64,000 bases of DNA from an uncultured Christensenella sp. (lineage in GTDB: Bacteria > Bacillota > Clostridia > Christensenellales > UBA1242), in contig CASFBJ010000008.1 of NCBI GenBank assembly GCA_949292875.1, forward strand, positions 4,547 through 68,546, in the 5' to 3' direction. The notes beneath the pieces are model-generated. The model worked only from the letters and a program-made list of their open reading frames with translations, had not been told where the DNA came from and did not search any database. The position numbers and the translations under genes were made by a program. Below, in pieces: positions 9,963-52,217 of the stretch. The stretch's first letter is position 1. Each line of letters begins with the position of its first letter.

Positions 9963-10304
9963 TATCTATATTATGGGGAATTGTCGCACGGTTATGAAAA
10001 TTTTTGGTGTATTTAACTTAGTTTATAAAATATAATTGCATTTAGGCACACTTTGGTGGGCCTTTTTCTAGTTATAAAAGACTAAGGGATGTGGCCGTTT
10101 TATGTGAGTCGCATATCCATTGACTATATTCCTAACATTTTAACTAAGGTTACTTAGTATGCGTTTAGATTTGTATCTAAAAACAGTTTCTCATTGTCTA
10201 ATAATCAAATTGCACTTGATTTGACAAAAAATTATATTAGACGAGCATGAGACATTTTTTTGTCTAAAATGCCTTTGATTAGTAAAAATAGGAGAATGAG
10301 TAAA

Positions 10305-13997: not shown

Positions 13998-16900
13998 ATG
14001 TTTGAATTAAATAATATAGATGCAATAAAAATATCTATTGCATCTCCCGAAAAGATTAGAGAATGGTCCTATGGCGAAGTTAAAAAAGCAGAAACTCTAA
14101 ACTACAGGACACAGAAACCTGAACCAGATGGCTTGTTTTGTGAAAAAATATTTGGCCCTACACAAGATTGGAGATGTAGATGCGGTAAATATAAATTAAA
14201 TAGATACAAAGGCGTTATTTGTGACAAATGCGGAGTAGAAGTAACGAAAAAGAAAGTAAGAAGAGAAAGAATGGGACATATAGAACTTGCTACTCCTGTG
14301 TCTCATATTTGGTATTTTAAGGGCGTTCCTTCAAGAATAGGCGTTATTCTTGATTTAAAACCTAAACATTTGGAACAAGTATTGTATTATGTTTGTTTTG
14401 TAGTTACAGACCCAGGAGATACTCCATTACAATACAAACAAATACTTACAGACAAAGAACTTAGAGATGCTCAAGAAATATATGGTGCAAATTCATTTAA
14501 AGCAGGTATGGGTGCTGAAGCCATAAAACAATTACTTGCAGATATAGACCTTGATAAAGAGATTGTAGAATTAAAGAAAATTATAGATACAGATAAAGGG
14601 CAAAAAAGATTAAAAGCATTTCGTAAGTTAGAAGTTGTAGAAGCTTTTAAAAAGAGTGGAAATCAACCTAAATGGATGATTTTAGATGTTCTTCCTGTAC
14701 TTCCTCCTGATTTAAGACCTATGGTTCCTATTGATGGTGGCAGAATGGTTGCTTCTGACCTTAACGATTTGTATAGAAGAGTAATAGTTAGAAACAATAG
14801 ATTAAAAGAGCTTATTGCAATCAATGGTCCTGATGTAATTATTAGAAACGAAAAAAGAATGTTGCAAGAAGCAGTTGATGCGCTTATAGAAAATGGTAAA
14901 AGAGGAAAACCTGTACAAAACTCTAAACAAAAAGATTTAAAGAGTTTGTATGCAAGTATTAAGGGTAAACATGGCCGTTTCAGAGAAAATATGCTTGGAA
15001 AAAGAGTAGATTACTCAGGTCGTTCAGTTATTGTCGTTGGTCCAGAATTAAAGATGTATCAATGTGGACTTCCTAAAGAAATGGCACTTGAACTTTTTAG
15101 ACCTTTTGTAATGAAGGAACTTATTAAGTACAATCATGCGACTAATCTTGCTAGTGCTAAAAGAGCCATAAATGCTTGTAAGCCAATTGTATGGGATATG
15201 TTAGATAAGGCAATAAAAGGACATCCTGTTATTTTGAACCGTGCACCTACACTACACAAGTTAGGTATACAAGCATTTGAACCTATACTTGTTGATGGTA
15301 AAGCAATAATGCTACATCCACTTGTTTGTGAAGGTTTCCATGCAGACTTTGACGGTGACCAAATGCCAGTACACATACCACTTAGCTTAGAAGCTAGAGC
15401 AGAAGCTCAAGCAATACTTTTAAGTACTAATAACATATTAAGACCTTCAAATGGTAAATCTATTGTTGACCCTTCTAAAGATATGATTATAGGTGTTTAT
15501 TATCTTACACTAGTTAGACCTGGTGCTAAGGGAGAAGGTAGTATATTTGTTAGTGAAGATGAAGCTATTATGGCTCATGCAACTCAAAATCTTGATTTAC
15601 AAGCACAAATATATGTAAGAAGAGAAGCAGATTTTGAAGGTGAAAAAGTTGTCGGTAGAGTAGCAACTACTGTTGGTAAAATACTTTTCAATAGACAAAT
15701 TCCGCAAAATATAGGATATGTAGATAGAACTAAGAAAGAAAATGTTTTAAGATATGAAATAGAGCAACCAGTAGGCAAGAAAGAGATTGCTAATCTTGTA
15801 AAAGATTGTTATTATGCCTTAGGTGTAAATGAAACAGTTAAAATGATTGATAGCATCAAAGAAATGGGATTTAAATATTCTACACTTGCTTCTTTAACTA
15901 TATCACTATTTGACTTTAAGAATAATGATATAAAAGATAAAGTTGTTGGTGAAGCAGAGGAAAATGTTAAGCAAATAGAGAAACAATACAAGAGAGGCTT
16001 AATGACTCATACAGAAAAAGTAGATAAAAATATAGAAATCTGGAATGAGGCTGTAGAAAAAGTTGAGTCTTCAATGCTTGATTGTATGGAAGATTTTAAC
16101 CCTATTAAAATGATTGTAAATTCTGGTGCTCGTGGTAACAAGCAAAACTTAAACCAGGTAGCAGGTTTAATCGGTATAATTTCAACTACTTCAGGTGAAA
16201 AGATTGATGTCCCTGTAAAATCTAACTTTAAAAAAGGAATGGAGCCTATAGAATATTTCATTGGTTCTCGTTCTGGTCGTAAAGTTCTTGCAGATACTGC
16301 AATTAAGACAAAACAAAGTGGATATCTAACTCGTAGACTTGTGTATGTTACTCAAGATGTTATTATTACAGAAGAAGATTGCTTTAAGTCTCTTGGTGAA
16401 TCAGTAAAGGGAATGAAAGTTTCTAAGATTGTTTCAGAAGGCAGAGTAATTCAAAAATTGAGCGAAAGAATAGAGGGTAGAGTTGCTGTTAATGATATAA
16501 TTAATCCTAAAAACAACGAAGTAATAGTGAAATCAAATGAAATGATTACAAGTTCTCAAGCAAAACTTATAGAGAGTTTGGGTATAGAAGAAGTAGAAAT
16601 TCGTTCTGTATTTACTTGTAAATGTTCAAGAGGTCTTTGTGCGAAATGTTATGGTAAGAGCATGACAAGTCATGACCTTGTGCCATTAGGCGAAGCTGTT
16701 GGTGTTATTGCAGCACAAGCAATTGGTGAACCAGGAACACAGTTAAGTATGAAGAACTTTGCAGCTGGTGTCGTTGGTGGTATAGATATTTCAAGAGGTT
16801 TACCAAGAATAGAAGAAATATTTGAAGCTAGAGACCCTAAAGGAAAAGCATATTTGTCTGAAGTTGCTGGTAAAATAAGTGTTAGAGAAGTAGACAAGAG

Positions 16901-17579
16901 AGCAGAGATAACTGTTCATTCTAAGTCAGATGGTGATGTCGTTTACCTATTACCATTTGGCGTTAAGTTAAAAGTTAAAGATGGCGACACAGTAGAACCT
17001 GGAACTCCATTTACTGAAGGACCTATTAACCCTAAAGAATTGCTTAGAACAAAAGGTGTTAAAGTATTGCAAGAATATCTATTGCAAGAAGTTGTATCAG
17101 TATATAGCGGTCAATCAATAGATATCAATACAAAACATATTGAGATAGTTATTAGACAAATGGTTAAGAAGGTTAAGATTGAAAACGCTGGAGATGCTAA
17201 TTTCATTCCAGGTGAATATGTAGACATTCATGAGTACGAGAAAGAAAATCAGAGAGTGCTAATGGAAAATGGAGTACCTGCGCTTGCAAAGAAAGAAGTT
17301 TTAGGTATTATTAAAGCATCTATCAATAGTGATAGCTTCCTTGCAGCAACTTCATTCCAATACACTTCTAGTGTTCTTACAGATTCTGCGGTGAAAGGTA
17401 AAGTAGATAACTTGCTAGGACTAAAAGAAAATGTATTAATAGGTAAACTTATACCTGCTGGTACAGGTTATCCACTATACAAGAATATAAAACCTGTTCA
17501 TATAAGCAAACTTGAAAACGAAAATAAAAAAGAAAGTTATCAAGAAGATGAAATGCTTGAAGAAGAAATAGATTTCTAA
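13998..17579 (+). CDS. rpoC: DNA-directed RNA polymerase subunit beta'
   Basis: Zn-finger CRCGKYKLNRYKGVICDKCGVEV, catalytic motif in its NADFDGD region (reads HADFDGDQMPVH here), NRAPTLHKLGIQAFEP. Confidence 0.97.
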   Translation: MFELNNIDAIKISIASPEKIREWSYGEVKKAETLNYRTQKPEPDGLFCEKIFGPTQDWRCRCGKYKLNRYKGVICDKCGVEVTKKKVRRERMGHIELATPVSHIWYFKGVPSRIGVILDLKPKHLEQVLYYVCFVVTDPGDTPLQYKQILTDKELRDAQEIYGANSFKAGMGAEAIKQLLADIDLDKEIVELKKIIDTDKGQKRLKAFRKLEVVEAFKKSGNQPKWMILDVLPVLPPDLRPMVPIDGGRMVASDLNDLYRRVIVRNNRLKELIAINGPDVIIRNEKRMLQEAVDALIENGKRGKPVQNSKQKDLKSLYASIKGKHGRFRENMLGKRVDYSGRSVIVVGPELKMYQCGLPKEMALELFRPFVMKELIKYNHATNLASAKRAINACKPIVWDMLDKAIKGHPVILNRAPTLHKLGIQAFEPILVDGKAIMLHPLVCEGFHADFDGDQMPVHIPLSLEARAEAQAILLSTNNILRPSNGKSIVDPSKDMIIGVYYLTLVRPGAKGEGSIFVSEDEAIMAHATQNLDLQAQIYVRREADFEGEKVVGRVATTVGKILFNRQIPQNIGYVDRTKKENVLRYEIEQPVGKKEIANLVKDCYYALGVNETVKMIDSIKEMGFKYSTLASLTISLFDFKNNDIKDKVVGEAEENVKQIEKQYKRGLMTHTEKVDKNIEIWNEAVEKVESSMLDCMEDFNPIKMIVNSGARGNKQNLNQVAGLIGIISTTSGEKIDVPVKSNFKKGMEPIEYFIGSRSGRKVLADTAIKTKQSGYLTRRLVYVTQDVIITEEDCFKSLGESVKGMKVSKIVSEGRVIQKLSERIEGRVAVNDIINPKNNEVIVKSNEMITSSQAKLIESLGIEEVEIRSVFTCKCSRGLCAKCYGKSMTSHDLVPLGEAVGVIAAQAIGEPGTQLSMKNFAAGVVGGIDISRGLPRIEEIFEARDPKGKAYLSEVAGKISVREVDKRAEITVHSKSDGDVVYLLPFGVKLKVKDGDTVEPGTPFTEGPINPKELLRTKGVKVLQEYLLQEVVSVYSGQSIDINTKHIEIVIRQMVKKVKIENAGDANFIPGEYVDIHEYEKENQRVLMENGVPALAKKEVLGIIKASINSDSFLAATSFQYTSSVLTDSAVKGKVDNLLGLKENVLIGKLIPAGTGYPLYKNIKPVHISKLENENKKESYQEDEMLEEEIDF

Positions 17580-35754: not shown

Positions 35755-37095
35755 TTATTCATCTTCTTTTTCTATAACAAAAGTTAAAAAATTTTTTGTT
35801 AAGTCGTCGTATTTTACTAATTCGCTTACTTCTATACCTAATACAACATAAACCATATTTTCATGTGCTATTAAAGGAATGAAATCTCTTTTTCTTTGTG
35901 GTATTTTTTTATCAATAAAAAAATCTTTTAATTTCTTTTTTCCGCCACCAAATTTTACAAATATGTCGCCTTCTTGTCTATATCTTATAACGCAATTTGT
36001 AGGGAGTTTGTCATAGTCAATTATGTGTCTATATAGGTTTTTGTTTTGCAAACTTTTCTGTTTTTTTATAGTAACCGTACCAAAATTTTCAAAAACATAT
36101 TGTTCTAATTTCAAATCTATAGGTTCTAATACATTTTTTAAGATTTTGTTAGTTATGGTTATTTTGTCATAATCTTTGTATACTATAACATTGTGCGGTA
36201 AATCTATTTTACTGCCATTTTGCGCTTCTAAGGCAAATTTGTATACTATATCAAAATGTTTTTTTTCTATGTCTTTATATATTTGTAAAAGATTAAATGC
36301 TTTTTTTAATAATCTATATATTATAGAAGTATGTTCGCTAAAAACTTTTAAAGGAACATATACTTGATTATTTTTTTTCTCTAATAAGTCTAAATTAGTA
36401 TTTGATAAAATATAATTTTCATCTAATTTGCAATTATTTGAAAAGCTACATATGTTTTTTTCAAATGCAGGAAATTTTTCTTGAATAATAGGGAAGATTA
36501 CATTTCTTATATAATTTCTTGAGTATTCATTATCTAGGTTTGTTTCATCTGTCATATATGTTAAATTATTTGCGTTTATATAGCTAATAATTTCATACTT
36601 TGAAGTATGTAACAATGGTCTAATGTAGAAATCTCTTTTTTCATCCATACCACAAGCGCCTTTTAATCCGCTTCCTCTTAATATATGTAACATTACAGTT
36701 TCTGCTTGGTCTAGCATATGATGTGCTAATGCTACTTTTGTAATGATTTTATCTTCATAACATTTTGCAAAAAAATTGTATCTTAATTCTCTAGCGCCAT
36801 CTTCTATACTTAAGCCATTTTGTTTGCAATAGGAAGAAACATCTACTTGAGTACTTAGTAACTTTATTCCTTTACTTGCACAGTAATCTGTTACAAATTT
36901 TGCATCTCTTAAGCTAGTTTCTCTTAAAGTATGGTCCACATGTAATGCTATAATATCAAAATTCATTTTGTCTTTTATTTCATGCAAAAAATTTAGTAAT
37001 GCTATACTATCACTTCCACCACTAACAGCTACACCTACAATGTCGTTTTTTTGAATTAAATTATACTTTACTATAGTATTGTATACACTTTGCAT
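35755..37095 (-). CDS. tilS: tRNA(Ile)-lysidine synthase
   Basis: PP-loop VAVSGGSDSIALL; LHVDHTLR; AHHMLDQAETVMLHILRGSG. Confidence 0.87.
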   Translation of the reverse strand: MQSVYNTIVKYNLIQKNDIVGVAVSGGSDSIALLNFLHEIKDKMNFDIIALHVDHTLRETSLRDAKFVTDYCASKGIKLLSTQVDVSSYCKQNGLSIEDGARELRYNFFAKCYEDKIITKVALAHHMLDQAETVMLHILRGSGLKGACGMDEKRDFYIRPLLHTSKYEIISYINANNLTYMTDETNLDNEYSRNYIRNVIFPIIQEKFPAFEKNICSFSNNCKLDENYILSNTNLDLLEKKNNQVYVPLKVFSEHTSIIYRLLKKAFNLLQIYKDIEKKHFDIVYKFALEAQNGSKIDLPHNVIVYKDYDKITITNKILKNVLEPIDLKLEQYVFENFGTVTIKKQKSLQNKNLYRHIIDYDKLPTNCVIRYRQEGDIFVKFGGGKKKLKDFFIDKKIPQRKRDFIPLIAHENMVYVVLGIEVSELVKYDDLTKNFLTFVIEKEDE

Positions 37096-37182: not shown

Positions 37183-38916
37183 TTATTGTACAGTAACGCT
37201 TTTAGCCAGATTCCTTGGTCTATCGGGGTTAAGGTTTAAAATGTTGCAAGACTTATATGCTAACTTTTGAAAAGGTATAATACTATACAAATTTATAGGC
37301 ATATTTTTCTTTCTTTCTAACTTTATTATGTAGTCCGCAGTGTCTTTGGGAACATCTAAAGTAGTTATTAGGGCGGTTTTTCCATTTCTAGTTTTTATTT
37401 CATTTATTGCTGTAAAAATAGAATTAGCATATTTTTCTTGTGTTAAAATGGCTATACTTAAAGTGTTTTTGTCAATTATAGACAGTGTGCCGTGTTTTAA
37501 TTCTCCACAAGGATAGGAGATGGCGTTTCTATATGTAAGTTCTCTGTATTTTAAAACTCCTTCCATAGCAGACACATAATCTTCGCATTTTCCTATAAAA
37601 ATTACAGTACTAGATTTACACATTTCTTTAGCAAGTTCATCTTCTTTATTTGACTTGATTAGGTCTGTTAAAAGTTTTGCATCTATGTCTATATCTTTTT
37701 TCTTGCATAGAAAATATATAGCAAGTATAGTGCAATTATAAACTTTAGTTGAAGCAACACTAACTTCTTTTCCTGCATATATAGGCAAACAATAATTACA
37801 TATTTTACTTAATTGACTATGAGTAGTATTTGTTATACCTAATGTTTTATATCCTAAATCTTTTACTTTTAAAAGCGCTTGCAAAGTGTCGTAGGTTTCA
37901 CCGCTTTGACTAATGAAAATAAATAAAGAATTTTTGTCAGTCAAAATTTCTTGGAATAAAAACTCACTTGCAATATGGCAAGTGCAGGGAATCTTAAGTA
38001 AATTTTCAATAATGTATTTTCCAATGCATGCTGAATGATACGCTGTGCCACAAGCGATTATATGTATTTGCTTATATTCTTTTAGGTCAGGTATTTTATG
38101 AGTAGAATTTTTGTAATGAAATAGTGTATTGCATAGTGCTTGAGGGATATCATTTATTTCTTTTTCTAAAAATGAACCGAATTCACCTTTAGAACTACTA
38201 TAATCAAAATCTTTAAATTCTATGCTTTCTTTTTCTATTTGTATATTGTACATGTTAAAAAAAGTAATTTTTTGTCCATTTGCAATGAAACATTCTCCGT
38301 CATTTAATTCATAATATTCTTTTATTAAGCCTTGAAATGCTATAAGGTCACTGCTAAAAACATAACCAGCTTCCATTTTGCCTACATAAAGTGGAGATTT
38401 GTTTTTAACTCCATAAATGCATTTTTCACAGTCTTGAACTTGCGCTAGAATTGCATATGAACCTTCTAACAGACTTATAGCATCTATAAAACTAGACATA
38501 CTTACTCCGTTTATAAAAAATTGTCTATCTATAGTTTGCGCAATAATTTCACTGTCGCAATCGCTTATTAGTTTGTCCTTTAAATTAAGAGACTTTATTA
38601 AATCTTTATAATTATCTATTATCCCATTATGAACAATGCAAACTTTTCCAATATGGTGAGGGTGTGTGTTTTTTTCACATATATTTCCATGTGTCGCCCA
38701 CCTTGTGTGGCAAATTATATTTTTAGATTTTTTGCTACTTATTTTATCGTATAAAGTTTTTATGTATCCAACGCTTTTGTATACATTTAGTTTGTTTTTA
38801 TCTAATGTACTTATCCCTACAGAGTCATAACCTCTATATTCTAAAAGTTCAAGTCTTTGTAAGGCTTGTTTTAATTCGTATGAATGCTTTGAAATAATGC
38901 CAAATATACCACACAT
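37183..38916 (-). CDS. glmS: Glutamine-fructose-6-phosphate aminotransferase
   Basis: MCGIFGI N-terminus (Ntn Cys), two SIS domains, C-terminal RNLAKSVTVQ. Confidence 0.92.
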   Translation of the reverse strand: MCGIFGIISKHSYELKQALQRLELLEYRGYDSVGISTLDKNKLNVYKSVGYIKTLYDKISSKKSKNIICHTRWATHGNICEKNTHPHHIGKVCIVHNGIIDNYKDLIKSLNLKDKLISDCDSEIIAQTIDRQFFINGVSMSSFIDAISLLEGSYAILAQVQDCEKCIYGVKNKSPLYVGKMEAGYVFSSDLIAFQGLIKEYYELNDGECFIANGQKITFFNMYNIQIEKESIEFKDFDYSSSKGEFGSFLEKEINDIPQALCNTLFHYKNSTHKIPDLKEYKQIHIIACGTAYHSACIGKYIIENLLKIPCTCHIASEFLFQEILTDKNSLFIFISQSGETYDTLQALLKVKDLGYKTLGITNTTHSQLSKICNYCLPIYAGKEVSVASTKVYNCTILAIYFLCKKKDIDIDAKLLTDLIKSNKEDELAKEMCKSSTVIFIGKCEDYVSAMEGVLKYRELTYRNAISYPCGELKHGTLSIIDKNTLSIAILTQEKYANSIFTAINEIKTRNGKTALITTLDVPKDTADYIIKLERKKNMPINLYSIIPFQKLAYKSCNILNLNPDRPRNLAKSVTVQ

Positions 38917-40370: not shown

Positions 40371-41312
40371 ATGAGAGAAAAAAATATAGATAGTAATTAT
40401 GAAGTTTTTACAATAACAGATAATGAAGTAGGTAAAAGATTAGATGTAGTTTTATCAGATGTTTTTAGTGAACATTCAAGAAGCTACATAAAGAAGCTTA
40501 TTGATGAAAATTTTGTATTTGTAAATGAAAAATGTCAAAAAGCAGGTTATAAAGTAAAGTATGGTGATATAGTATATATAGAGTTCCCTGTAGAAGAAAC
40601 TTATAGTTTGGAGGCACAAAATATTCCTTTAGATATTGTTTATCAAGATGAAGATATTGCAGTAATAAATAAAGCAAAAGGAATGGTAGTTCATCCTGCT
40701 GTTGGTAACACGGAGGGAACTTTAGTAAACGCAATTCTGTATCATATAAAAGATTTAAGCGGAATAAATGGTGAACTCCGTCCAGGAATAGTGCATAGGA
40801 TAGATAAGGATACTACAGGACTTTTAGTTATAGCAAAAAATGATATGGCTCATAGGTCATTAAGTGAGCAAATAAAAAATAAAACTTGCAAAAGAATATA
40901 TAAAGCTTTGGTCCACGGTGCGCCACCTAATAGTGAGGGTAGAGTAGTTACTTATATAGGTAGAAACCCGAAAGATAGAAAGAAAATGGCAGTTGTAGAA
41001 GAAAATGAAGGTAGACTTGCTGTGACTAATTATAAGGTTTTAAAAAAATATGCACATTTTAGTTTAGTTGAATTTTCTTTAGAAACAGGAAGAACTCATC
41101 AAATAAGAGTGCATTGTAAATATTTAAACATTCCTATTGTAGGTGATTTTACATATGGAGCACCAAAAAATAAGTTTGGAATAGAGGGTCAACTTCTTCA
41201 TGCTTGTAAACTTATTTTACAGCATCCACGCACAAATGAAATAATGACTTTTGAAGCGAAGTTGCCTAACTTTTTTCAAGATGTTATAGATAAATTAGAG
41301 AAAACAAATTAA
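40371..41312 (+). CDS. rluD: 23S rRNA pseudouridine synthase, RluA/RluD family
   Basis: S4 domain N-terminus, catalytic HRIDKDTTGLLVIAKN, GRTHQIRVH. Confidence 0.9.
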   Translation: MREKNIDSNYEVFTITDNEVGKRLDVVLSDVFSEHSRSYIKKLIDENFVFVNEKCQKAGYKVKYGDIVYIEFPVEETYSLEAQNIPLDIVYQDEDIAVINKAKGMVVHPAVGNTEGTLVNAILYHIKDLSGINGELRPGIVHRIDKDTTGLLVIAKNDMAHRSLSEQIKNKTCKRIYKALVHGAPPNSEGRVVTYIGRNPKDRKKMAVVEENEGRLAVTNYKVLKKYAHFSLVEFSLETGRTHQIRVHCKYLNIPIVGDFTYGAPKNKFGIEGQLLHACKLILQHPRTNEIMTFEAKLPNFFQDVIDKLEKTN

Positions 41313-42406: not shown

Positions 42407-42574
42407 ATGAAAAAATACAAAATTAACTTTTATTCAAAACTTCTAAACAAAAGAATAACAAAGGTTGTGGAAGATCCAAAAAATTATACCGATGCAATTA
42501 TTCTTGAAGTGATTGAAGAACCAAGAAGCATTTATCACAGACAATTAAGAATTGTTTTGGAGGTGAATGTATGA
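42407..42574 (+). CDS. Hypothetical 55-aa protein (not in the ORF track)
   Basis: RBS ggagg 6 nt upstream. The stop overlaps the next start (ATGA). Translation begins MKKYKINFYSKLLNKRITKVVEDPKNY... Confidence 0.35.
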   Translation: MKKYKINFYSKLLNKRITKVVEDPKNYTDAIILEVIEEPRSIYHRQLRIVLEVNV

Positions 42575-43455
42575 AAATAACAAACAACTTAAAATTGCCA
42601 CAACCATTTGTTGATGCGGTTGACAAAGATTATCAATATAAAGACAAAAGGTATTCAGTTACAACACTGTTAAAACCAGTCAGGGAAATCATGTTGTTAA
42701 GAAGACACAATGATGAAATTGAATGTGATGTCAGTGATATGATTTGGGCAATTTTTGGAACAGCGGTGCATTCTGTGTTGGAAAATTCAACAGAAGGAAA
42801 ACACCTATTAAAAGAAAAATCACTTGAAATCAAAATCGGTGATTATACATTGTCAGGAAGAAGTGATTTATATAATGTGCATTCATTTACAGTTATTGAT
42901 TACAAAGTAACATCAGTTTGGAAATACATATTGAAAGAATTTGATGATTATAAAAAACAGGGTGCAATGTATGTTTATATGTTGCAAAAGTTGGGTTACA
43001 AAGCAAAAAAAGCAGAGTTTATTTTGGTTTTGAAAGATTGGCAAAAATCAAAAGCAAAGTTTGATAAAAATTATCCACAACTTCCTGTTCAAAAAGTTCA
43101 GTTCACTTTTACAGACAAAGACATGGAAGAAATTGAAAAATTTATCTTTGATAAGTTTGAACAAATAAAAGAAGCGGAACAACTTGAAGATGCAAAATTG
43201 CCATTATGTTCAGCAGAAGACAGATGGAACAGTGGTGATAAGTTTGCAGTTATGAAAAATGGAAGAAAGACCGCTTTGAGAGTGTTAGACAGTAAAGAAG
43301 AAGCAGAACAATACAAAAGCAACAATGGTGGTGATTACATTGAAACCAGGAAGGGTGAAGATAGAAAATGCCAGGATTATTGTCAATGTTGTGAGTTCTG
43401 TGAACATTACAAAAAATGTGTGAAAGATGGTGGTTCACAACCACTGCCATTTTAG
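42571..43455 (+). CDS. PD-(D/E)XK (RecB/Cas4-like) exonuclease with a C-terminal Cys cluster
   Basis: GRSDLY...VIDYKV (D...D-x-K core) and CQDYCQCCEFCEHYKKC. Positioned directly upstream of an annealase. Confidence 0.68.
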   Translation: MKITNNLKLPQPFVDAVDKDYQYKDKRYSVTTLLKPVREIMLLRRHNDEIECDVSDMIWAIFGTAVHSVLENSTEGKHLLKEKSLEIKIGDYTLSGRSDLYNVHSFTVIDYKVTSVWKYILKEFDDYKKQGAMYVYMLQKLGYKAKKAEFILVLKDWQKSKAKFDKNYPQLPVQKVQFTFTDKDMEEIEKFIFDKFEQIKEAEQLEDAKLPLCSAEDRWNSGDKFAVMKNGRKTALRVLDSKEEAEQYKSNNGGDYIETRKGEDRKCQDYCQCCEFCEHYKKCVKDGGSQPLPF

Positions 43456-43473: not shown

Positions 43474-44271
43474 ATGGAACAAAAAGAAATACGACTTTTA
43501 ACAAAAGATGACATTGAAGTTAAAGTTAAAAAAGTTTTAGATGGCAAAGCATTATTACTATTATACAAAACTGCAAGGATTGACATGGCAATACTTGATG
43601 AAGTGTTTGGTGTGTTCAACTGGTGCAATGAATACAAAGAAATCAAAGGCAACATGTATTGTGGTGTCGGTGTAAGAGAAAGTGCAGACAAAGATTTCAT
43701 TTGGAAATGGGATTGTGGCATTGAAAGCAGGGAAGATGAAGAAGGAAACCAAAAGAAAGGTGAAGCAAGTGATGCATTCAAAAGAGCATGTTTCAAAGTT
43801 GGTATTGGTAGAGAACTTTACACTGCACCTGTTATTTACATAAAAGCAGAAACAGTTGCTGATGGTAAAAAACACAAATTAAAAGACAGTTTTGCAAAAT
43901 ATACAGTCAAAGAAATTCAATACAATGAAAACAGAGAAATCACAAAATTGATTATTGTTGACAGAAAGGGTGTGCAAGTATTTCCAGTAAATAAAGTTGA
44001 AAACACACCTGCACCAAAAGAAGAAAAAAAGCAACCTGCAATCACTGGTGAGAAATTAAAAGAAAGACAACAAAGATTACAGGAAGCATTGGCAAATAGT
44101 GAAATAACACTTGAAAATGCTAAAAAATGGGCAAAAATTAAGTCAAAACAAGACATTGAACCTGAACAATTAAGTGATGATTTATTTGAAGCACTTATTC
44201 AGTCAATAACCAAACCTGAATATCAAAAGAAAAAAGAAGAAACACCACCTGATGAAGATGACATATTTTAA
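43474..44271 (+). CDS. Rad52/Sak-type single-strand annealing protein
   Basis: KGEASDAFKRACFKVGIGRELY motif typical of Rad52/22 (Sak) family phage SSAPs. Lys/Glu-rich C-terminal half ending in DEDDIF. Confidence 0.7.
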   Translation: MEQKEIRLLTKDDIEVKVKKVLDGKALLLLYKTARIDMAILDEVFGVFNWCNEYKEIKGNMYCGVGVRESADKDFIWKWDCGIESREDEEGNQKKGEASDAFKRACFKVGIGRELYTAPVIYIKAETVADGKKHKLKDSFAKYTVKEIQYNENREITKLIIVDRKGVQVFPVNKVENTPAPKEEKKQPAITGEKLKERQQRLQEALANSEITLENAKKWAKIKSKQDIEPEQLSDDLFEALIQSITKPEYQKKKEETPPDEDDIF

Positions 44272-45521: not shown

Positions 45522-45858
45522 CACAGTTAAAAGTCAGGATCTAACAGAAACAACAAGAAACAGGTTGAACAAAGTTTATTCAATGTTAAAAACATCAACA
45601 ACCAAAGAAGAAATTGTGATGAATTTAGACATCAATGAAAGGGTTGCAAGAGATTTAATATCTTACATAAAAAAGAAATTTCCAGTCATTTCAAACAGTC
45701 AAAATAAAGGTTACAGATTGGCTCTTTCAGTTGATGATTTGGAAGATGCAAAACAAACTATTGCAGAAGCAAGAAGCAGAATAAATGACTTGCAAGAAGG
45801 CATCAAACCACTTGAAGATTTTGTTGACAGAATAGGGGTGGTTTATGAAGAAAAATAG
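45508..45858 (+). CDS. Putative winged-helix DNA-binding protein
   Basis: TKEEIVMNLDINERVARDLISYIKKKFPVISNSQNKGYRLA resembles an HTH_11/WYL-type winged-helix N-domain. The start at 45508 follows RBS ggaggtg. Confidence 0.4.
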   Translation: MKKYNTVKSQDLTETTRNRLNKVYSMLKTSTTKEEIVMNLDINERVARDLISYIKKKFPVISNSQNKGYRLALSVDDLEDAKQTIAEARSRINDLQEGIKPLEDFVDRIGVVYEEK

Positions 45859-46555
45859 TTTTGTGGTGTATAGCGAATATTTAAGATATTTTGATAAATT
45901 GTCATTGATTGAAAAAGGAAAATTGATTGATGCAATGTTAAGATTTTCACAAGATTTGCCTGTTGAAGAACAAATCAAAGACATGGAAGCATCAACAGAA
46001 ATGGCATTTATGTTCATCAGCAATCAAATGAGTTTAGATGCACAAAAGTATGACCGCAGGTGCGAAACTTCAAGACAAAATGGTTCAAAAGGTGGTGCTC
46101 CAAAAGGGAATAAAAATGCAAAAAAACTTGATGAAAATGATGAAGAAAAACAACCTAAACAACCTAAAAACAACCTAAAAACAACCAAAAACAAGCCTAA
46201 TGATAATGAAAATGATAATGATAATGATTTTCAAAAAGAAAATAAAAAAAGAAAAAGCATCATCTTGGCAGATGATGACATTGAAGGTTTGATTGGTGAA
46301 AATTTTAGAGATGAAGAAGTTGCAAATAAGTTTAGAGAATTTATCCAAATGCGAAAAGCAAAAGGTGTTTCAAAGGCAGTAAGAACAAAAGCAACTTTTG
46401 ATGGGTTGGTTAGAGATTTAAGGAAGTTTGCAGGTAAAAGCAAAAAGAAAGCACTTGCAATTCTTGATAAAGGAATAAACAACTGTTGGCAGGGTTTATT
46501 TGATATTCCTGACTTTGTAGAAGATGAAGAGGAGGGTGTTCCTTATGCAAACTGA
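45845..46555 (+). CDS. Replisome-organizer-like protein (DnaD-like C-terminal region) containing internal iterons
   Basis: Position immediately upstream of DnaB. C-terminal FREFIQMRKAKG...ALAILDKGINNCWQGLF. Direct repeats lie in the middle of the gene. Confidence 0.5.
   Translation: MKKNSFVVYSEYLRYFDKLSLIEKGKLIDAMLRFSQDLPVEEQIKDMEASTEMAFMFISNQMSLDAQKYDRRCETSRQNGSKGGAPKGNKNAKKLDENDEEKQPKQPKNNLKTTKNKPNDNENDNDNDFQKENKKRKSIILADDDIEGLIGENFRDEEVANKFREFIQMRKAKGVSKAVRTKATFDGLVRDLRKFAGKSKKKALAILDKGINNCWQGLFDIPDFVEDEEEGVPYAN
46151..46200 (+). repeat. Iteron cluster: CAACCTAAA x3 perfect plus 2 degenerate copies at 9-11 bp spacing; candidate phage origin
   Basis: caacctaaa at 46151, 46160 and 46171; caaccaaaa at 46182; caagcctaa at 46192. 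Followed by a (GATAAT/GAAAAT)n AT-rich stretch at 46201-46227. Confidence 0.55.
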
Positions 46556-47936
46556 CAAGAAGTTTTACAATGCACAAGCAGAAAAAGAGATGTTGGCATG
46601 TGTGTTGGTTGACAATGTTGCGAATCCATTTGTTACAGAAGACATAATGGCAAAAGTTAAAGTTGATGACTTCTTCTGCAATGAATACAAAATTGTTTAC
46701 ACATTGATGCAAAAGTTATTCAGGGCAGGCAAAGAAATCAACATTGTTACATTGTGGGAACTTCTTGACAGACAATCACCGCCACCTTTGAAAATGGAAG
46801 AACTTGTTGCACTTGCAGATAAAATTTTGCCAAACAATTCAAATTATCAAACAACTATTGATATTTTGAAAGAGAATACCAGGTTGAGAAAATTGAAAAA
46901 TCTTGCAACACAGTTTGATGAAAAGTTAAACACCAAAGACTCTTCATTGAACATCATGAAATCAATTCAGGGTGAACTTGTAGAACTTGAAGAAAGTGAA
47001 ATTGTAAACTTTGACATTGAACATGCTGATGTCAGTTCCAAGAAGGAACTTGAAAGAATAGACCAAATAATTATGGGAAAACATGATGACTTTGGTTTGC
47101 CAACAGGTTTTCCAGTATTGGACAAAACATTGTGGGGTTTACAGAAAAGTGATTTGATTATTCTTGGTGCAAGAGCAGGTGTCGGTAAAACTGCATTTGC
47201 ATTGAATGTGTTAAACCACTGTGCAAACGAATTGAAAAAGAACTGTTTGTTTTTCAGTTTGGAAATGCCAAAAAATCAAATCATTCAAAGGTTGTATTCG
47301 CTTATTGGTGGGGTTGATAACTATGACATCAAAAAAGCAACACCGCTTGGACAACAACCTGAATTATTGAAAAAGATTGCATCAAAAATTGAAAATGGAA
47401 GTTTGTATATTGATGACACATCAAAAAACACAGTTGCATCAATGTCAATTAAGGCAAAAAGATTTCAGCGAAAAAATGGTTTAGATTTGGTTGTGATTGA
47501 TTACTTGCAATTCATCACACCAAGTCAAAGGACAGGCAACCGCTTCCAAGATGTAGGTGATATTGCAAGAGATTTGAAAGTCATGGCAAGACAGTTGAAT
47601 GTTCCAGTTATTGCACTATGTCAGTTGAATAGACAGTTGGACAATGAGAAAAGAACACCAACACTTGCAGATTTGAGAGAATCAGGCGAAATTGAAAACA
47701 ATGCAGATATAATCATGTTTTTGCATTCAACAGATAGCAAATACAACGAAAAGCGAAACATTGATTTAATTATTGGCAAGTTTAGAAGCGGACAGATGCG
47801 AGCAGTGAAAATGGAATATGAAGGCAAGTGTTTCAGGTTTAAGGAACTGGAAAAAGAACCAGTGAAGAAACCAACAACCAAACAAACTTCAATGGAATTA
47901 ACACCTATTGAAGATGATGGAAGTTTGCCATTTTAG
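46545..47936 (+). CDS. dnaB: Replicative DNA helicase (DnaB family) with an SSB-like C-terminal tip
   Basis: GFPVLDKTLWGLQKSDLIILGARAGVGKTAF (Walker A), FSLEMP, VIDYLQF, ALCQLNR. Ends ...ELTPIEDDGSLPF. Confidence 0.9.
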   Translation: MQTDKKFYNAQAEKEMLACVLVDNVANPFVTEDIMAKVKVDDFFCNEYKIVYTLMQKLFRAGKEINIVTLWELLDRQSPPPLKMEELVALADKILPNNSNYQTTIDILKENTRLRKLKNLATQFDEKLNTKDSSLNIMKSIQGELVELEESEIVNFDIEHADVSSKKELERIDQIIMGKHDDFGLPTGFPVLDKTLWGLQKSDLIILGARAGVGKTAFALNVLNHCANELKKNCLFFSLEMPKNQIIQRLYSLIGGVDNYDIKKATPLGQQPELLKKIASKIENGSLYIDDTSKNTVASMSIKAKRFQRKNGLDLVVIDYLQFITPSQRTGNRFQDVGDIARDLKVMARQLNVPVIALCQLNRQLDNEKRTPTLADLRESGEIENNADIIMFLHSTDSKYNEKRNIDLIIGKFRSGQMRAVKMEYEGKCFRFKELEKEPVKKPTTKQTSMELTPIEDDGSLPF

Positions 47937-47943
47937 TAGGAGG
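47895..47943 (+). repeat. Left copy of a 49-nt direct repeat (46/49 identical to 49764-49812)
   Basis: gaattaacacctattgaagatgatgg-NNN-tttgccattttagtaggagg covers the last 13 codons, the stop and the downstream RBS. Confidence 0.9.
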
Positions 47944-47947
47944 TAGT

Positions 47948-48385
47948 ATGAAATTCTTTGAACTTATAAAGCAATACAACAATACAAAATTCAGGTTGAA
48001 ATCAAAAATGAATGAAGAGGCAGAATTAAGGGAATTGTGTGCATTGCCAAAAACAAGTGATATGGGTGGAATGCCTGGTGCTCCAGGTTATAATGGTTCA
48101 CCTGTTGAAAAATTTGTGATTAGACTTGATGAATTAAAACAAGAACAAAACAAACTTAATTCCAAACTTGAAGACATAAGAAATGACATCATGCTTTTCA
48201 TTGACACACTTGATGATTACTTTGCAAGACAGGTTGTTGAATTAGTGGTATTTAGATTATCACCAAGACCGAACTGGAAACATGTTGCAAAAAGAATTGG
48301 TTACAGTGAAAGCGGTGCAAGAGCATTATACAAAACAAGTGCTTCAAAATTGGAAAATCTTGAATTGGAGGAATTAAAAAGATGA
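47948..48385 (+). CDS. ArpU/RinA/DUF1492-like sigma-70 region-4 type phage late transcription regulator
   Basis: C-terminal HTH-like segment ARQVVELVVFRLSPRPNWKHVAKRIGYSESGARALYKTSASKLE. Central GMPGAPG segment as in phage ArpU/RinA-type activators. Assignment from memory. Confidence 0.55.
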   Translation: MKFFELIKQYNNTKFRLKSKMNEEAELRELCALPKTSDMGGMPGAPGYNGSPVEKFVIRLDELKQEQNKLNSKLEDIRNDIMLFIDTLDDYFARQVVELVVFRLSPRPNWKHVAKRIGYSESGARALYKTSASKLENLELEELKR

Positions 48386-48729
48386 GTTACTTTGGAAATG
48401 AAAAAGAACTTGCAGATAAAGAAAGAGAAGAAGCAGAAATTGTTGCAAGTAACGAATATCAAAAAGAAGTTGATGAAGGTTCGCCACACATAGAAAGATT
48501 GGCAGATGGTTCATGGGTTGCAAGCATAGAAGTTGACATGCAGAATGCAAGTATTGATGAAGTTGAATATCAACAACAAAGATTGCTTGAAGCAATATTG
48601 GAACAAAAAGAAAAAGATGCAACTGACACATCAACCTATGTTTGCGAAACAAAAATGCTTCATTTTGTTGCATCAGGAAGAAAAACAATAATTGTCAAAT
48701 TGAGAAAGGTGCAAAATTCAAATGAATAA
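48382..48729 (+). CDS. Hypothetical acidic protein
   Basis: Start overlaps the upstream stop (ATGA). No family recognised. Confidence 0.4.
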   Translation: MSYFGNEKELADKEREEAEIVASNEYQKEVDEGSPHIERLADGSWVASIEVDMQNASIDEVEYQQQRLLEAILEQKEKDATDTSTYVCETKMLHFVASGRKTIIVKLRKVQNSNE

Positions 48730-49426
48730 AAAGAAAGTTGTAAAAATTGGAATTATCTGTTTGTGCTTAATTGCATTGTGTGTTGGGGTTTATTTCATTC
48801 TAAAACACTTTGGCATAACAGATGTTGAAACAATAAGAAGTGTTGTTGAAAGTTGTGGTGTTTGGGGTTGGTTAGTATTCATGCTTATGTTTATAACTGC
48901 CAGTGTGTTCTTGTGTTTTATACCAGGAACATCAGCATCATTCATTGTTGTTTCAATCGTATTGTTTGGTGCATGGAAGGCATTGATTATATCTTCTGTG
49001 TCAGTCATTATTGCTTCATCAATTATGTTCTTTATTGGACACACTTTTGGTGAAAAGGTGGCGGAAAAAATTGTTGGAAAAGACAGTTTACATAAAGCAC
49101 AAGAATTGATTGATGTTAAAAGCAAAATATTCTTGCCATTGATGTTTCTGTTTCCTGTTTTTCCTGATGATGCACTTTGCATGGTTGCAGGAATGACAAA
49201 AATGAAATACTGGTATTTCTTAATTGTTGTTGCAGTTTGCAGAACAATAGGTATTGCCACTATATGCTTTTTGGGTAGTGGTTTTATAAACTGGGCATCA
49301 CTATCAATTATTGAATGGTTTTGCCTGATAACATGTTGTTTGGTTTGGTTGTTTGTTATATTCAAAGCATCAAACAAAATAGAACAAAAAATTAAAAATA
49401 AAAAGGTGGAAGAAAAAGATGAATAA
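48722..49426 (+). CDS. TVP38/TMEM64 (DedA-related, SNARE-associated) family membrane protein
   Basis: Polytopic protein; LFPVFPDDALCMVAGMTKMKYWYFLIVVAVCRTIG matches the re-entrant-loop motif of the DedA/TVP38 superfamily. Confidence 0.62.
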   Translation: MNKKKVVKIGIICLCLIALCVGVYFILKHFGITDVETIRSVVESCGVWGWLVFMLMFITASVFLCFIPGTSASFIVVSIVLFGAWKALIISSVSVIIASSIMFFIGHTFGEKVAEKIVGKDSLHKAQELIDVKSKIFLPLMFLFPVFPDDALCMVAGMTKMKYWYFLIVVAVCRTIGIATICFLGSGFINWASLSIIEWFCLITCCLVWLFVIFKASNKIEQKIKNKKVEEKDE

Positions 49427-49805
49427 ATGTATTTTTATTGGAAATTTAACAAAAGATCCTGAATTGGCAACAACTTCAAGTGGTGTTACAGTGTGCAGGT
49501 TTACACTTGCAGTTCAAAGAAAATTTGCAAATGCAGATGGCGAAAAGGAAGCAGATTTTATCAACATTGTTGCTTGGCGAAAACTTGGTGAAACTTGTGG
49601 AAAATATCTTGCGAAGGGTAGAAAATGCAGTGTTACAGGTGCAATGCAAACAAGAAGTTATGATGCACAAGATGGTTCTAAAAGATATGTAACAGAAATA
49701 ATTGCAGAAGAAATTGAGTTTTTATCAGCAAAACCACAAGAAGACGGCGGTTCAGCTGATCCTGAATTAACACCTATTGAAGATGATGGTGATTTGCCAT
49801 TTTAG
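49419..49805 (+). CDS. ssb: Single-stranded DNA-binding protein
   Basis: MNKCIFIGNLTKDPEL...FTLAVQR...ADFINIVAWRKLGE...V.GAMQTRSY (OB fold). Canonical tip DDGDLPF. Confidence 0.92.
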   Translation: MNKCIFIGNLTKDPELATTSSGVTVCRFTLAVQRKFANADGEKEADFINIVAWRKLGETCGKYLAKGRKCSVTGAMQTRSYDAQDGSKRYVTEIIAEEIEFLSAKPQEDGGSADPELTPIEDDGDLPF

Positions 49806-49812
49806 TAGGAGG
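49764..49812 (+). repeat. Right copy of the 49-nt direct repeat
   Basis: Same sequence as 47895-47943 except for 3 central nt. Confidence 0.9.
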
Positions 49813-49817
49813 CGAAC

Positions 49818-50231
49818 ATGAGAAACATACAACAGATGGTGAACTATTTGCAAAAAAAGTTGATTGAACATGGTTTTATAATTCAGCGGTTAGATGCAGA
49901 AACAACAAAATCAGTTTATTTGAAAATTGATTATGGTTTGTGCAATAGCATAAGAATAAGCGACCATACAGGCAAAAAAGAATTTGCATACCGCTTCAAC
50001 ATTTTAAGACAAATGCCATCAAAATCTTGCCAGTTCTTTGACAATGGCAGATTTCCAAGATATTTCTATTCATTTGATATGGTTGACAAAATGATTGAAG
50101 ACATCTTGAAAAGAAGAAGTCAGCAAATTCAAAGATATGGCAAGAAGTTGTATTTGGCATTCCAGGAAAAAGAGAAAACTGAAAGGAATGGAAACAACAG
50201 ATTTTGGAATAAAGCAAAATTTGTGAATTGA
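49818..50231 (+). CDS. Hypothetical phage protein (137 aa)
   Basis: RBS aggagg. No family recognised. Confidence 0.45.
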   Translation: MRNIQQMVNYLQKKLIEHGFIIQRLDAETTKSVYLKIDYGLCNSIRISDHTGKKEFAYRFNILRQMPSKSCQFFDNGRFPRYFYSFDMVDKMIEDILKRRSQQIQRYGKKLYLAFQEKEKTERNGNNRFWNKAKFVN

Positions 50232-50243
50232 CCTGGAGGAAAT

Positions 50244-51014
50244 ATGGAAGAATTTTATGTGTTGAGTTGGAGCAGGGGCAAAGACTCCAGTGCATTGTTG
50301 GTGTATGTTCTTCAAAAAAAGATGCCACTTCATGCAATAGTAACATGCGACATAATGTTTGATGAACATACCAGTGGTGAACATCCACTTATGGCAAAGT
50401 GGTTAGATGAAGCAGAAGAAAGAGTGAATTATTTATTAAAAAAGTTTGGTTATGAACATGTAAAAATAATTCACTTGACTGCCAAAAGAAATTTTTTAGA
50501 ACAATTTTACACAGTGAAAAGAAAAGGCAATCATATTGGTGATAACTATGGGTTTCCTTATATTATAGGTGCTTGGTGTAACAGTAAATTAAAACTTGAT
50601 CCAACAAGTAAATATATCAATAATTTATTGAAACAGGGTTATTGTGTTACTGAATATGTTGGAATTGCAAGTGATGAACCAAAAAGGTTGAAGCGGTATA
50701 AAGTTTTAACTTCACACAATCACAAATACATAACACTTGCAAAGTTTATGATAACAGAACAAAAAGCATTAAGGACTTGCAAATATTGGAAATTGCTATC
50801 ACCGAAATATGAAAATTCATTCAGGTGTGGTTGTTGGTTCTGTCCAAAACAATCATTGTATGATTTGTATAATTTGTGGAAGAACCACAATGAATACTTT
50901 GAAAGATTGTTAAAAATTGAAAAGGATTCTCATAACACTTTCAAACCTGGTTCAACACTTGCTGAAATTAAGGCAAGATTTGAAAGTGGTTATATTCCAA
51001 AAAGGAAAAGGTAG
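50244..51014 (+). CDS. PAPS reductase / PP-loop ATP-pyrophosphatase family protein
   Basis: VLSWSRGKDSSALL (SGGKDS-type PP-loop). C-terminal CGCWFCP Cys pair. Confidence 0.68.
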   Translation: MEEFYVLSWSRGKDSSALLVYVLQKKMPLHAIVTCDIMFDEHTSGEHPLMAKWLDEAEERVNYLLKKFGYEHVKIIHLTAKRNFLEQFYTVKRKGNHIGDNYGFPYIIGAWCNSKLKLDPTSKYINNLLKQGYCVTEYVGIASDEPKRLKRYKVLTSHNHKYITLAKFMITEQKALRTCKYWKLLSPKYENSFRCGCWFCPKQSLYDLYNLWKNHNEYFERLLKIEKDSHNTFKPGSTLAEIKARFESGYIPKRKR

Positions 51015-51021
51015 GTGGCAA

Positions 51022-51288
51022 ATGAAAACAGAATATGTGTGGGTAGATAGAAACCGAAATCACTACAAGTTAGAAGACATAAGCAATTCATACTTATTAA
51101 ACATTATTAAGTTTATTTGTGATGGTGGTGGTTTTACAGATGAAATGAGTGAAAGAAAAATCAAAATGCTATTTGATGAAGCAAAAAAGAGAAATTTACA
51201 ACACAAATTTCAACTTGAAAATGCAATAAGTGCATACCATGAAAAATTAAGTTATGAATGCCAGGTGTTTTGTCCTGATTGGGAGTGA
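51022..51288 (+). CDS. Hypothetical phage protein (88 aa)
   Basis: ATG at 51022 follows RBS aaggtaggtgg. The upstream part of the track ORF overlaps the previous gene. Confidence 0.42.
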   Translation: MKTEYVWVDRNRNHYKLEDISNSYLLNIIKFICDGGGFTDEMSERKIKMLFDEAKKRNLQHKFQLENAISAYHEKLSYECQVFCPDWE

Positions 51289-51290
51289 TT

Positions 51291-52217
51291 ATGAATAATG
51301 AATTTAATGCAGATGAAATCAAAGCAAGATATACCATTTATGAGATATTAAGCAAGTATGGACTTTATCCGCAAAGAAATAACATGATTGCATGTCCATT
51401 TCACAATGAAAAGAATGCATCAATGAAGATATATGACAACAATACATTTCATTGTTTTGGTTGTGGTGCTGATGGTGATATTTTTGACTTTGTGCAAAGA
51501 ATGGAAAATTGTGATTTTATAAGAGCAATGGAAATTATCACAAATAGCACCTTTCAACCTTACATTCCAAAGAAAGAACCTGTTAAAACCAAAGTTGCAC
51601 AGAATCCACAAATGTTGAAAAACTATATCAAAAAATGTCATGACAATTTGTCAAAAACAGATTACTTCTATAAAAGGAAGTTAAACAAAGAAACACAAGA
51701 AAAGTTTTGTCTTGGTTATGATGAAAAATACAATTCTGTTGTGATTCCTTACAATAAAGAACTTACATATTATCAAAGCAGAAATGTAGAAACAAAAGCA
51801 TTTTACAAACCAAACACAGACATTGCAGGAACTGAACCATTGTTTAACCAGGAAGCATTGAAACTTGCAGATTGTGTGTTTGTTGTTGAAAGTCCTATAT
51901 GTGCATTATCAATCATGCAATATGGATACAATGCCATTGCATTATGCGGTGTGCAGGGGTGGAAGAAATTACAGAACATAGAAATAAACAAAGATTGCAA
52001 ACTTATTCTATGTTTAGACAATGATTTTGAAGGCAAAAAGGCAAGAGATAACATCATCAATGCTTTTCCTGAAAAATCAATCGCATATAACATTGCCAGT
52101 GAATGTAAAGATGCAAATGAACTTCTTATTAAAGATGAAACCAGGTTTGTAAAAAATCTTTACTTAATATCAACACTGGTGAAGAAAACATATTTTGGAG
52201 GGAATTATGAAAATTGA
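51291..52217 (+). CDS. DNA primase (CHC2 zinc finger plus Toprim)
   Basis: ACPFHNEKNASMKIYDNNTFHCFGCGADGDIFDF (CHC2). Toprim-like VFVVESPICALS ... LCLDNDFEGKKA. Confidence 0.8.
   Translation: MNNEFNADEIKARYTIYEILSKYGLYPQRNNMIACPFHNEKNASMKIYDNNTFHCFGCGADGDIFDFVQRMENCDFIRAMEIITNSTFQPYIPKKEPVKTKVAQNPQMLKNYIKKCHDNLSKTDYFYKRKLNKETQEKFCLGYDEKYNSVVIPYNKELTYYQSRNVETKAFYKPNTDIAGTEPLFNQEALKLADCVFVVESPICALSIMQYGYNAIALCGVQGWKKLQNIEINKDCKLILCLDNDFEGKKARDNIINAFPEKSIAYNIASECKDANELLIKDETRFVKNLYLISTLVKKTYFGGNYEN

Follow-up and report, generated by a model that had tools for sequence, protein, structure and literature searches.

The DnaB-family helicase of a prophage in an uncultured Christensenella sp. ends in a peptide that matches the C-terminal tip of bacterial SSB (single-stranded DNA-binding protein), and the 3' end of its gene is nearly identical at the DNA level to that of the prophage ssb gene. 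Both genes lie in a 64,000-nt stretch (GCA_949292875.1, contig CASFBJ010000008.1, positions 4,547 to 68,546 of the forward strand), which was analysed as a whole and is referred to here as the window. We consider it probable that dnaB and ssb of this prophage carry a portable SSB-tip peptide, in which an ancestral, clade-wide tail on DnaB, 3' ends matched by gene conversion, and docking of the tail on SSB-tip pockets come together. The SSB tip is the peptide on which many genome-maintenance proteins dock and, in bacterial genome maintenance, the principal handle for recruitment; a helicase bearing such a tip would, if this reading is true, be a new phage route to host polymerases and to restart and repair factors. 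A full-text literature search turned up no description of an SSB tip on a DnaB helicase, an absence that is in itself no proof. The SSB tip and the principle of a tail shared by the helicase and SSB of phage T7 are already established, and the direct repeat in itself represents ordinary gene conversion of a short functional module. The features on which the argument turns are as follows.

46524..47936, + strand: DnaB-family replicative helicase of the prophage (Pfam DnaB PF00772, 2e-12; DnaB_C PF03796, 6e-78)
47856..47933, + strand: C-terminal extension of DnaB, residues 445-470, with a Lys/Pro/Thr-rich linker predicted to be disordered and a 13-residue SSB-tip-like tail
47895..47943, + strand: repeat copy 1, comprising the last 13 codons of dnaB (ELTPIEDDGSLPF), TAG, and the TAGGAGG ribosome-binding site (RBS) of the 145-aa gene
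47948..48385, + strand: 145-aa regulator-like protein (phrog_36)
48382..48729, + strand: 115-aa acidic protein, without a family match
48722..49426, + strand: VTT/DedA-type membrane protein of 234 aa (Pfam VTT_dom, 7e-20)
49419..49805, + strand: prophage SSB of 128 aa, with an OB domain (residues 1-102), a short linker and an SSB tip (Pfam SSB, 8e-34)
49764..49812, + strand: repeat copy 2, comprising the last 13 codons of ssb (ELTPIEDDGDLPF), TAG, and the TAGGAGG RBS of the 137-aa gene
49818..50231, + strand: 137-aa gene 3' of copy 2, present in some relatives only

The helicase is assigned to the DnaB family (superfamily 4, SF4) of replicative helicases by its N-terminal DnaB domain and its RecA-like DnaB_C domain with a Walker A motif. 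The G-x-G-K-T of this motif is invariant in an alignment of 26 DnaB members of the clade (alignment A1), and DnaB structures in the PDB are matched down to 2e-61. The true start of the protein is probably M8 at 46545, giving a product of 463 aa: M8 is invariant in A1, database relatives are 461-465 aa long, and residues 1-11 have a predicted local distance difference test score (pLDDT) below 50 in an AlphaFold2 model for which 26 clade members served as input. Alignments to the PDB DnaB structures reach only query residue 440-444, and the model is confident to residue 441, with no secondary structure after that point and pLDDT <50 at residues 445-457; the folded part of the protein ends near residue 441-444. 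Residues 445-470 are thus modelled as a disordered linker and a 13-residue tip lying beyond the folded RecA-like domain.

This extension shows the features of an SSB C-terminal tip (SSB-Ct), being placed at the extreme C-terminus, ending in a hydrophobic residue followed by Pro-Phe, containing an acidic run (..IEDDGSLPF) and following a disordered linker. The tip of cellular SSBs of gut Clostridia (..KLQPIDDDSLPF) is matched by the DnaB tail over 12-13 residues. One such SSB, P0212, which is encoded in an rpsF-ssb-rpsR operon of a gut Clostridia species, ends AKLQPIDDDSLPF; this is a comparison at the level of the group and not with the prophage's own host. The same extended C-terminal motif is shared by SSB homologues of the phage group and of cellular genomes. 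By these measures the helicase appears to bear the host-type SSB C-terminal tip in full. A clamp-binding motif (QL[SD]LF type) was also considered for the tail and was dropped, as the tail matches SSB tips instead.

The tail is found well beyond this prophage. The ending ..L.PI.DD..LPF is found in ~55 of the 62 best cluster representatives of DnaB homologues (39-98% identity) from a 5.8-billion-protein collection, examples being MELTPIEDDSLPF (53% identity) and IELEPIDDDSLPF (53%), and cellular DnaBs (~34% identity) lack the tail and end straight after the folded domain. Related loci, given here as L numbers, were fetched from viral, metagenome and genome collections (200 loci in total), and tails were scanned in a set of 196 sequences made up of the window and the loci fetched by that point. 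In this set, an LPF end occurs in 29 DnaBs that score >=180 bits, of which 24 reach >=365 bits, and those scoring >180 bits but ending otherwise are L123, L038/L125 and several distant ones. The consensus tail of the clade is PI[ED]DD.(.)LPF, with L468, P469 and F470 invariant in the 26 members of A1. In the GenBank phage collection, the best DnaB match found by protein search has 33.5% identity and its alignment stops before the tail, so that the clade is without a cultured representative in that collection; a near-identity DNA search of GenBank phages returned only a 37-nt match, located inside a streptococcal ssb.

Close relatives (75-99% identity) share the gene order dnaB-145-115-VTT-ssb. 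In L016, a tailed DnaB is accompanied by an ssb gene upstream of dnaB, and in nine further loci with a tailed DnaB (L007, L008, L010-L012, L037, L119, L121 and L122) the only SSB-like gene is an upstream one encoding a 113-aa protein, which aligns to SSB by profile-profile comparison only (hhalign, 91% probability) and is probably a short, divergent phage SSB. This upstream protein, 112-126 aa long across these nine loci and encoded next to DUF6291-dnaB (for example at L007:6870-7211, L008:6813-7151 and L010:6761-7105), has an SSB tip end, ..ELEPYQDVDDLPF. No SSB-like gene was found within 5-8 kb on either side of the tailed dnaB in L006, L009, L013 and L015. Judged from this distribution, the tail is an ancestral, conserved trait of a clade of DnaBs encoded by temperate phages and by prophages of uncultured gut Clostridia, and its presence is independent of the existence or position of an ssb gene. 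Distant DnaBs of other lineages (P0063, P0065, P0075, P0078, P0081, P0084; L040, L142, L182, L022) have different acidic, Phe-terminated ends (..DITDIF, ..DLEDLF, ..DDELF, ..LSDVF, ..QLDDTPF and ..ENVPF), and Phe-terminated acidic tails may have arisen on DnaB more than once.

The two repeat copies are direct repeats identical at 46 of 49 nt, laid out as 26 identical nt, three mismatches and 20 identical nt, and they start 1869 nt apart. The pattern occurs at these two sites only in the window, where none is expected (100 shuffles). The original prediction had described each copy as the last 13 codons (ELTPIEDDG[S/D]LPF), the TAG stop and a downstream ribosome-binding site, forming the 3' ends of dnaB and ssb, and this description was confirmed throughout: the three central mismatches (47921-47923 / 49790-49792) are GGAAGT versus GGTGAT and give G-S versus G-D, the flanks immediately upstream of the copies are unrelated (4/21 nt identical), and the genes bracketed are those of the 145-aa regulator-like protein, the 115-aa acidic protein, the VTT/DedA-type membrane protein and the body of ssb. 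An assembly artefact was ruled out by the occurrence of the same arrangement in L017, an independent metagenome-assembled genome (MAG) contig of Clostridia bacterium RGIG8962 from water deer rectum, in L198, and in X1, one of eight public metagenome runs (Logan, X numbers) that were available as assembled contigs and unitigs, where a 55-kb contig passes unbroken through both copies. Sequence near-identical to the window prophage was found in ruminant and other gut metagenomes. In the window and its relatives, the tail-bearing genes nearly always use the minority stop TAG (9/40 long open reading frames, ORFs) fused to GAGG, so that the stop codon forms part of the ribosome-binding site of the next gene; in the window the TAG is duplicated (TAGTAGGAGG) at both sites (47934-47943 and 49803-49812).

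The likeness of the two ends is best explained by recurrent short-tract gene conversion, which would have run in both directions, kept the 3' ends near-identical and extended the identity past the stop codon. The competing explanation is that no DNA was exchanged, and that selection on the peptide together with codon bias made the ends alike by convergent or parallel conservation. Codon bias is indeed strong (GAA 0.87, GAT 0.78, TTT 0.82), most relatives have the string TTG CCA TTT TAG GAGG at both genes, and the peptide is kept in hundreds of SSBs and DnaBs. However, identical codons are used at 11 of the 12 shared residues, compared with 6.2 expected from window codon usage (P=0.003), and the three adjacent mismatched bases switch together to the paralogous state. 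In L196 and L197, which derive from two samples, ssb carries the dnaB version GGAAGT and is identical to the window dnaB copy over 49/49 nt, after which ssb-specific sequence resumes. In X2, both ends of the repeat coincide exactly with breaks in the assembly graph, and a 49-nt unitig has twice the depth; in the unitig that runs on into the 145-aa gene, three differences fall in the first 30 nt, from which it follows that the dnaB copy of X2 has the ssb version.

Two further lines of evidence argue against conservation of the ends without exchange. The extra TAG is non-coding and common to both ends, being present after dnaB in the window and L198, and after ssb in the window, L017, L196, L197 and X5 (absent there in L198, X6, X7 and X9). 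In addition, the tails of DnaB and of SSB or SSB-like proteins are more alike within than between genomes (14 genomes; permutation P=0.001 for peptide and <0.0002 for nucleotide sequence), also when the window lineage is left out (P=0.013 and 0.002, respectively). Taken with the codon and block-switch data, these results make the absence of any exchange improbable. Identity between the dnaB and ssb ends of the same genome falls with distance from the window, from 46 of 49 nt in the window itself to 43 in L198, 40 in L003, 34 in L199, 29 in L004 and 26 in L001. The ssb gene is also exchanged at a larger scale: between the window and L198 it is 92.8% identical (49428-49880) and the neighbouring genes are 98-99.8% identical, with 28 mismatches falling in the 330 nt of 49428-49757 as against ~0.6% elsewhere, and the 42 coding bases of the tail unchanged. 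This difference looks like an ssb-sized recombination patch, and ssb is a recombination hot spot between phages that are otherwise 99% identical.

The repeat had first been read as the footprint of a four-gene cassette (regulator, hypothetical, VTT, ssb) that was inserted or exchanged through the ssb 3' end, created the tail on DnaB and could be excised again through the repeats. The part of this proposal that concerns recombination through the 3' ends stands, in the form of exchange between the dnaB and ssb ends as seen in the block flips of L196/L197 and X2 and in the mosaicism of ssb; the insertion or exchange of a four-gene cassette is not supported. The repeats bracket exactly these genes and have unrelated upstream flanks, and relatives are mosaic at ssb and in the genes beyond it, the 137-aa gene being present in only some of them, so that this region is variable. 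Equally, the 3' end of an ssb gene could have been captured long ago, at the base of the DnaB clade, as the tail resembles cellular SSB tips over 12-13 residues. Nevertheless, the tail is clade-wide down to ~40% identity and occurs in loci with ssb upstream or with none nearby; as relatives that have no downstream ssb possess it, it cannot stem from a cassette in this genome.

The relatives also fail to show the forms that a mobile cassette would leave behind. None of the 200 loci has dnaB directly before the 137-aa (49818) gene, and the close relatives, at least 12 in number (L001, L003-L005, L017, L116-L118, L124, L198-L200), all carry the bracketed genes, with no empty form among them. The four genes do not travel together: a 145-aa homologue follows dnaB in L006 without VTT and ssb, and ssb alone was swapped between the window and L198. 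Relatives at 75-77% identity retain the same architecture with the two ends matching at only 26-29 of 49 nt, an outcome of the kind that the original prediction itself had named as counting against it. A search for junctions indicating excision or duplication found no 1869-nt skip in the contigs of the eight metagenome runs, in which rare forms are invisible, and in X2 the internal 1877-nt unitig is at the same depth as its flanks. Excision via the repeat, deleting four genes and leaving an intact tailed dnaB and a ribosome-binding site for the next gene, is possible in principle. As a recent event the cassette model is already contradicted, and we regard it overall as highly improbable. The case carries a caution for annotation, in that a direct repeat bracketing a set of genes need not mark an insertion.

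The prophage begins at ~41.4 kb of the window with a recombination and replication module, in which the genes are ordered exonuclease, Erf-like annealing protein, NinB-like protein, RusA, DUF6291 protein, DnaB, 145-aa, 115-aa, VTT, ssb, 137-aa, PAPS-reductase-like and DnaG-type primase; the terminase and portal genes come after this module. Members of the module that enter the discussion of function, or that lie beside the genes already listed, are given here.

42571..43455, + strand: exonuclease (phrog_2139), ending ..GGSQPLPF
43474..44271, + strand: Erf-like single-strand annealing protein, ending ..PPDEDDIF
45845..46555, + strand: DUF6291 protein, overlapping the dnaB start and syntenic with dnaB across most of the clade
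50244-51014: PAPS-reductase-like protein of 256 aa (phrog_424, 2e-35), between the 137-aa gene and the primase gene
51279..52217, + strand: DnaG-type primase (Zn-ribbon and Toprim)

Over ~41.4-55.7 kb of the window, and likewise in annotated relatives, neither a polymerase-sized ORF nor a DNA polymerase family was found, and the prophage presumably uses the host polymerase. As the prophage supplies its own helicase, primase and SSB but no polymerase, coupling to the host polymerase or to restart factors would be the most plausible role of the DnaB tail. PriA and DnaE are among the 12 or more proteins that the C-terminus of B. subtilis SSB recruits (PMC3000357). In the mechanism proposed here, the helicase hexamer would display six SSB-tip peptides on flexible linkers at its C-terminal face, and these tips would dock into the SSB-tip pockets of host clients (in Firmicutes, PriA, DnaE, RecJ, RecO, RecG and RecQ) or of phage SSB-binding proteins. 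The tailed hexamer would thereby compete for, or recruit, SSB clients at the fork, and docking would link the phage helicase to the host replisome and polymerase and to restart and repair factors, and would let helicase and SSB hand over to each other.

A partner encoded by the phage itself is a less likely target. The tail could bind the DnaG-type primase, the DUF6291 protein, the Erf-like annealing protein or the exonuclease, or it could fold back on the DNA-binding surface of DnaB as an auto-inhibitor. The DnaB and phage SSB tails co-vary within genomes, as expected for one co-evolving partner, but such co-variation is also expected from gene conversion or from tracking of the host SSB. The DUF6291 protein, a candidate replication organiser or helicase loader, is syntenic with dnaB across most of the clade, yet the tail persists in L006, where Phage_rep_org_N lies upstream instead. 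E. coli DnaG primase binds the SSB tip (PMC3632105), but the DnaB tail matches cellular SSB tips. We consider a phage partner or an auto-inhibitory role unlikely on balance.

The terminal LPF could alternatively serve mainly as a ClpXP degradation tag, limiting the lifetime of the replication and recombination proteins of the phage, and not as a docking peptide. In S. mutans UA159, the last three residues of SsbA and SsbB, LPF, suffice for ClpXP-dependent degradation (PMC5143411). The exonuclease keeps just ..PLPF without acidic residues, and LPF ends 3/55 long + strand ORFs in the window, where ~1e-4 per protein is expected. Recognition of this degron, however, depended on the strain, did not occur in E. 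coli or the further streptococci tested, and was not reproduced in vitro (PMC5143411), and conservation of the DnaB tail spans 13 residues, including the acidic run and L.PI, far beyond the three that a degron of this kind needs. A mainly degradative function thus has little probability, and the degron and docking roles are in any case compatible.

A broader reading may be offered more tentatively than that of the portable tip on dnaB and ssb. The DnaB clade, uncharacterised and known only from gut metagenomes and MAG prophages, would carry a genuine host-type SSB tip, and together with the tailed SSB, exonuclease and annealing protein it could constitute an 'address-tag' system that connects the phage's replication and recombination enzymes to the host SSB interactome (in Firmicutes, for instance, PriA or DnaE), its tags matched by gene conversion. 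The exonuclease is the third protein of the module with a C-terminal LPF, an ending kept in all close relatives, and the acidic, Phe-terminated end of the annealing protein is only partly kept in relatives. Such a system is credible, if somewhat doubtful in its full extent; if true, it would explain how a foreign DnaB recruits the host polymerase without the usual clamp-loader contact.

Several observations weigh against the interpretation favoured here, namely that dnaB and ssb share a portable SSB-tip peptide matched by gene conversion. Relatives give an ambiguous picture of which way the first transfer between dnaB and ssb went: the DnaB-type 'MELTPIE..SLPF' tail sits deep in the DnaB tree, yet L199 and L200 have window-type ssb tail codons (36 identical nt) beside a different DnaB tail. 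Part of the identity between the ends is due to strong codon bias and to TTGCCATTTTAG(GAGG), which nearly all relatives retain. At strain level, the evidence lies in metagenome contigs and unitigs and includes no isolates. The ..SQPLPF tail of the exonuclease has no acidic run and fits the classical SSB tip poorly, and the function of the DnaB tail is deduced from sequence mimicry and analogy alone. With these points taken into account, a gene-converted SSB tip shared by dnaB and ssb still appears to us the probable reading. The strain-level block flips would represent a clear natural case of very short-tract gene conversion matching an interaction peptide between two genes, and the shared-tail principle of the T7 helicase and SSB would come to cover the DnaB-type helicases of temperate phages, which rely on host polymerases, as well.

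The host part of the window extends from position 1 to ~41.3 kb and contains the following landmarks, the last of which lies immediately before the prophage.

10260-13982: rpoB
13998-17579: 1193-aa ORF, likely rpoC
35755-37095, - strand: tilS
37183-38916, - strand: glmS
40371-41312: RluD-like pseudouridine synthase gene, with the prophage beginning just 3' of it

The Logan contig of run X1 starts at ~41079 of the window, within the 3' end of the RluD-like gene, and this position may mark the attachment junction. In two relatives (L003:1-5334 and L004:1-5384), a reverse-transcriptase gene (RVT_1) and an rve-type integrase gene lie upstream of the recombination genes; in the window, host genes occupy the place where these would lie. 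Inside the replication module, the VTT gene for an integral membrane protein, which overlaps the ssb start, is kept in all close relatives. An extra 218-290 nt is found between the VTT gene and ssb (window 49414-49419) in some strains and relatives (X3, X6, X9 and L004), and in L004 it takes the form of a 100-aa ORF (L004:12887-13189). The 115-aa, 137-aa and 113-aa proteins have no match in Pfam or PHROGs, and the PAPS-reductase-like protein has no match in ten related loci (L001-L009). Near the late region, relatives encode a small gene of the Acb2/Tad1-hairpin family (L004:17127-17357, L199:10036-10266), an anti-CBASS/Thoeris sponge family.

The elements described here can be compared with four known systems. 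In its position at the extreme C-terminus, its acidic run, its hydrophobic-Pro-Phe end and its disordered linker, the DnaB tail is like the SSB-Ct of E. coli (..DDDIPF) and Firmicutes (..DDDLPF), with the difference that it is borne by a hexameric DnaB helicase (and, in shortened form, by an exonuclease) and not by an OB-fold ssDNA-binding protein. The LPF degron of S. mutans SsbA/SsbB has the same last three residues, but it is strain-specific and three residues suffice, compared with the 13 conserved here. The exchange between dnaB and ssb resembles short-tract gene conversion and phage mosaicism in that paralogous tracts are alike within a genome, changes come in blocks, flanks are unrelated and ssb is swapped; it differs in that perfect identity covers just 26+20 nt, a very short tract, and in that this tract codes for a functional peptide together with translation signals.

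The closest precedent is that of phage T7, in which an SF4/DnaB-family helicase (gp4) and an SSB (gp2.5) both have acidic, Phe-terminated tails that share the same basic patches of the polymerase and help in coupling and hand-off. The C-tails of gp4 bind basic patches of T7 polymerase (PMC8472574), and the gp2.5 tail has been modelled at the position that a peptide mimic of the gp4 tail occupies in PDB 6P7E (PMC12339929). The T7 tails bind the phage's own polymerase, whereas the prophage module has no polymerase and its tails copy the host-type SSB tip. The tails described here are, in addition, near-identical in DNA and subject to gene conversion, which is not described for T7 in PMC8472574 or PMC12339929.

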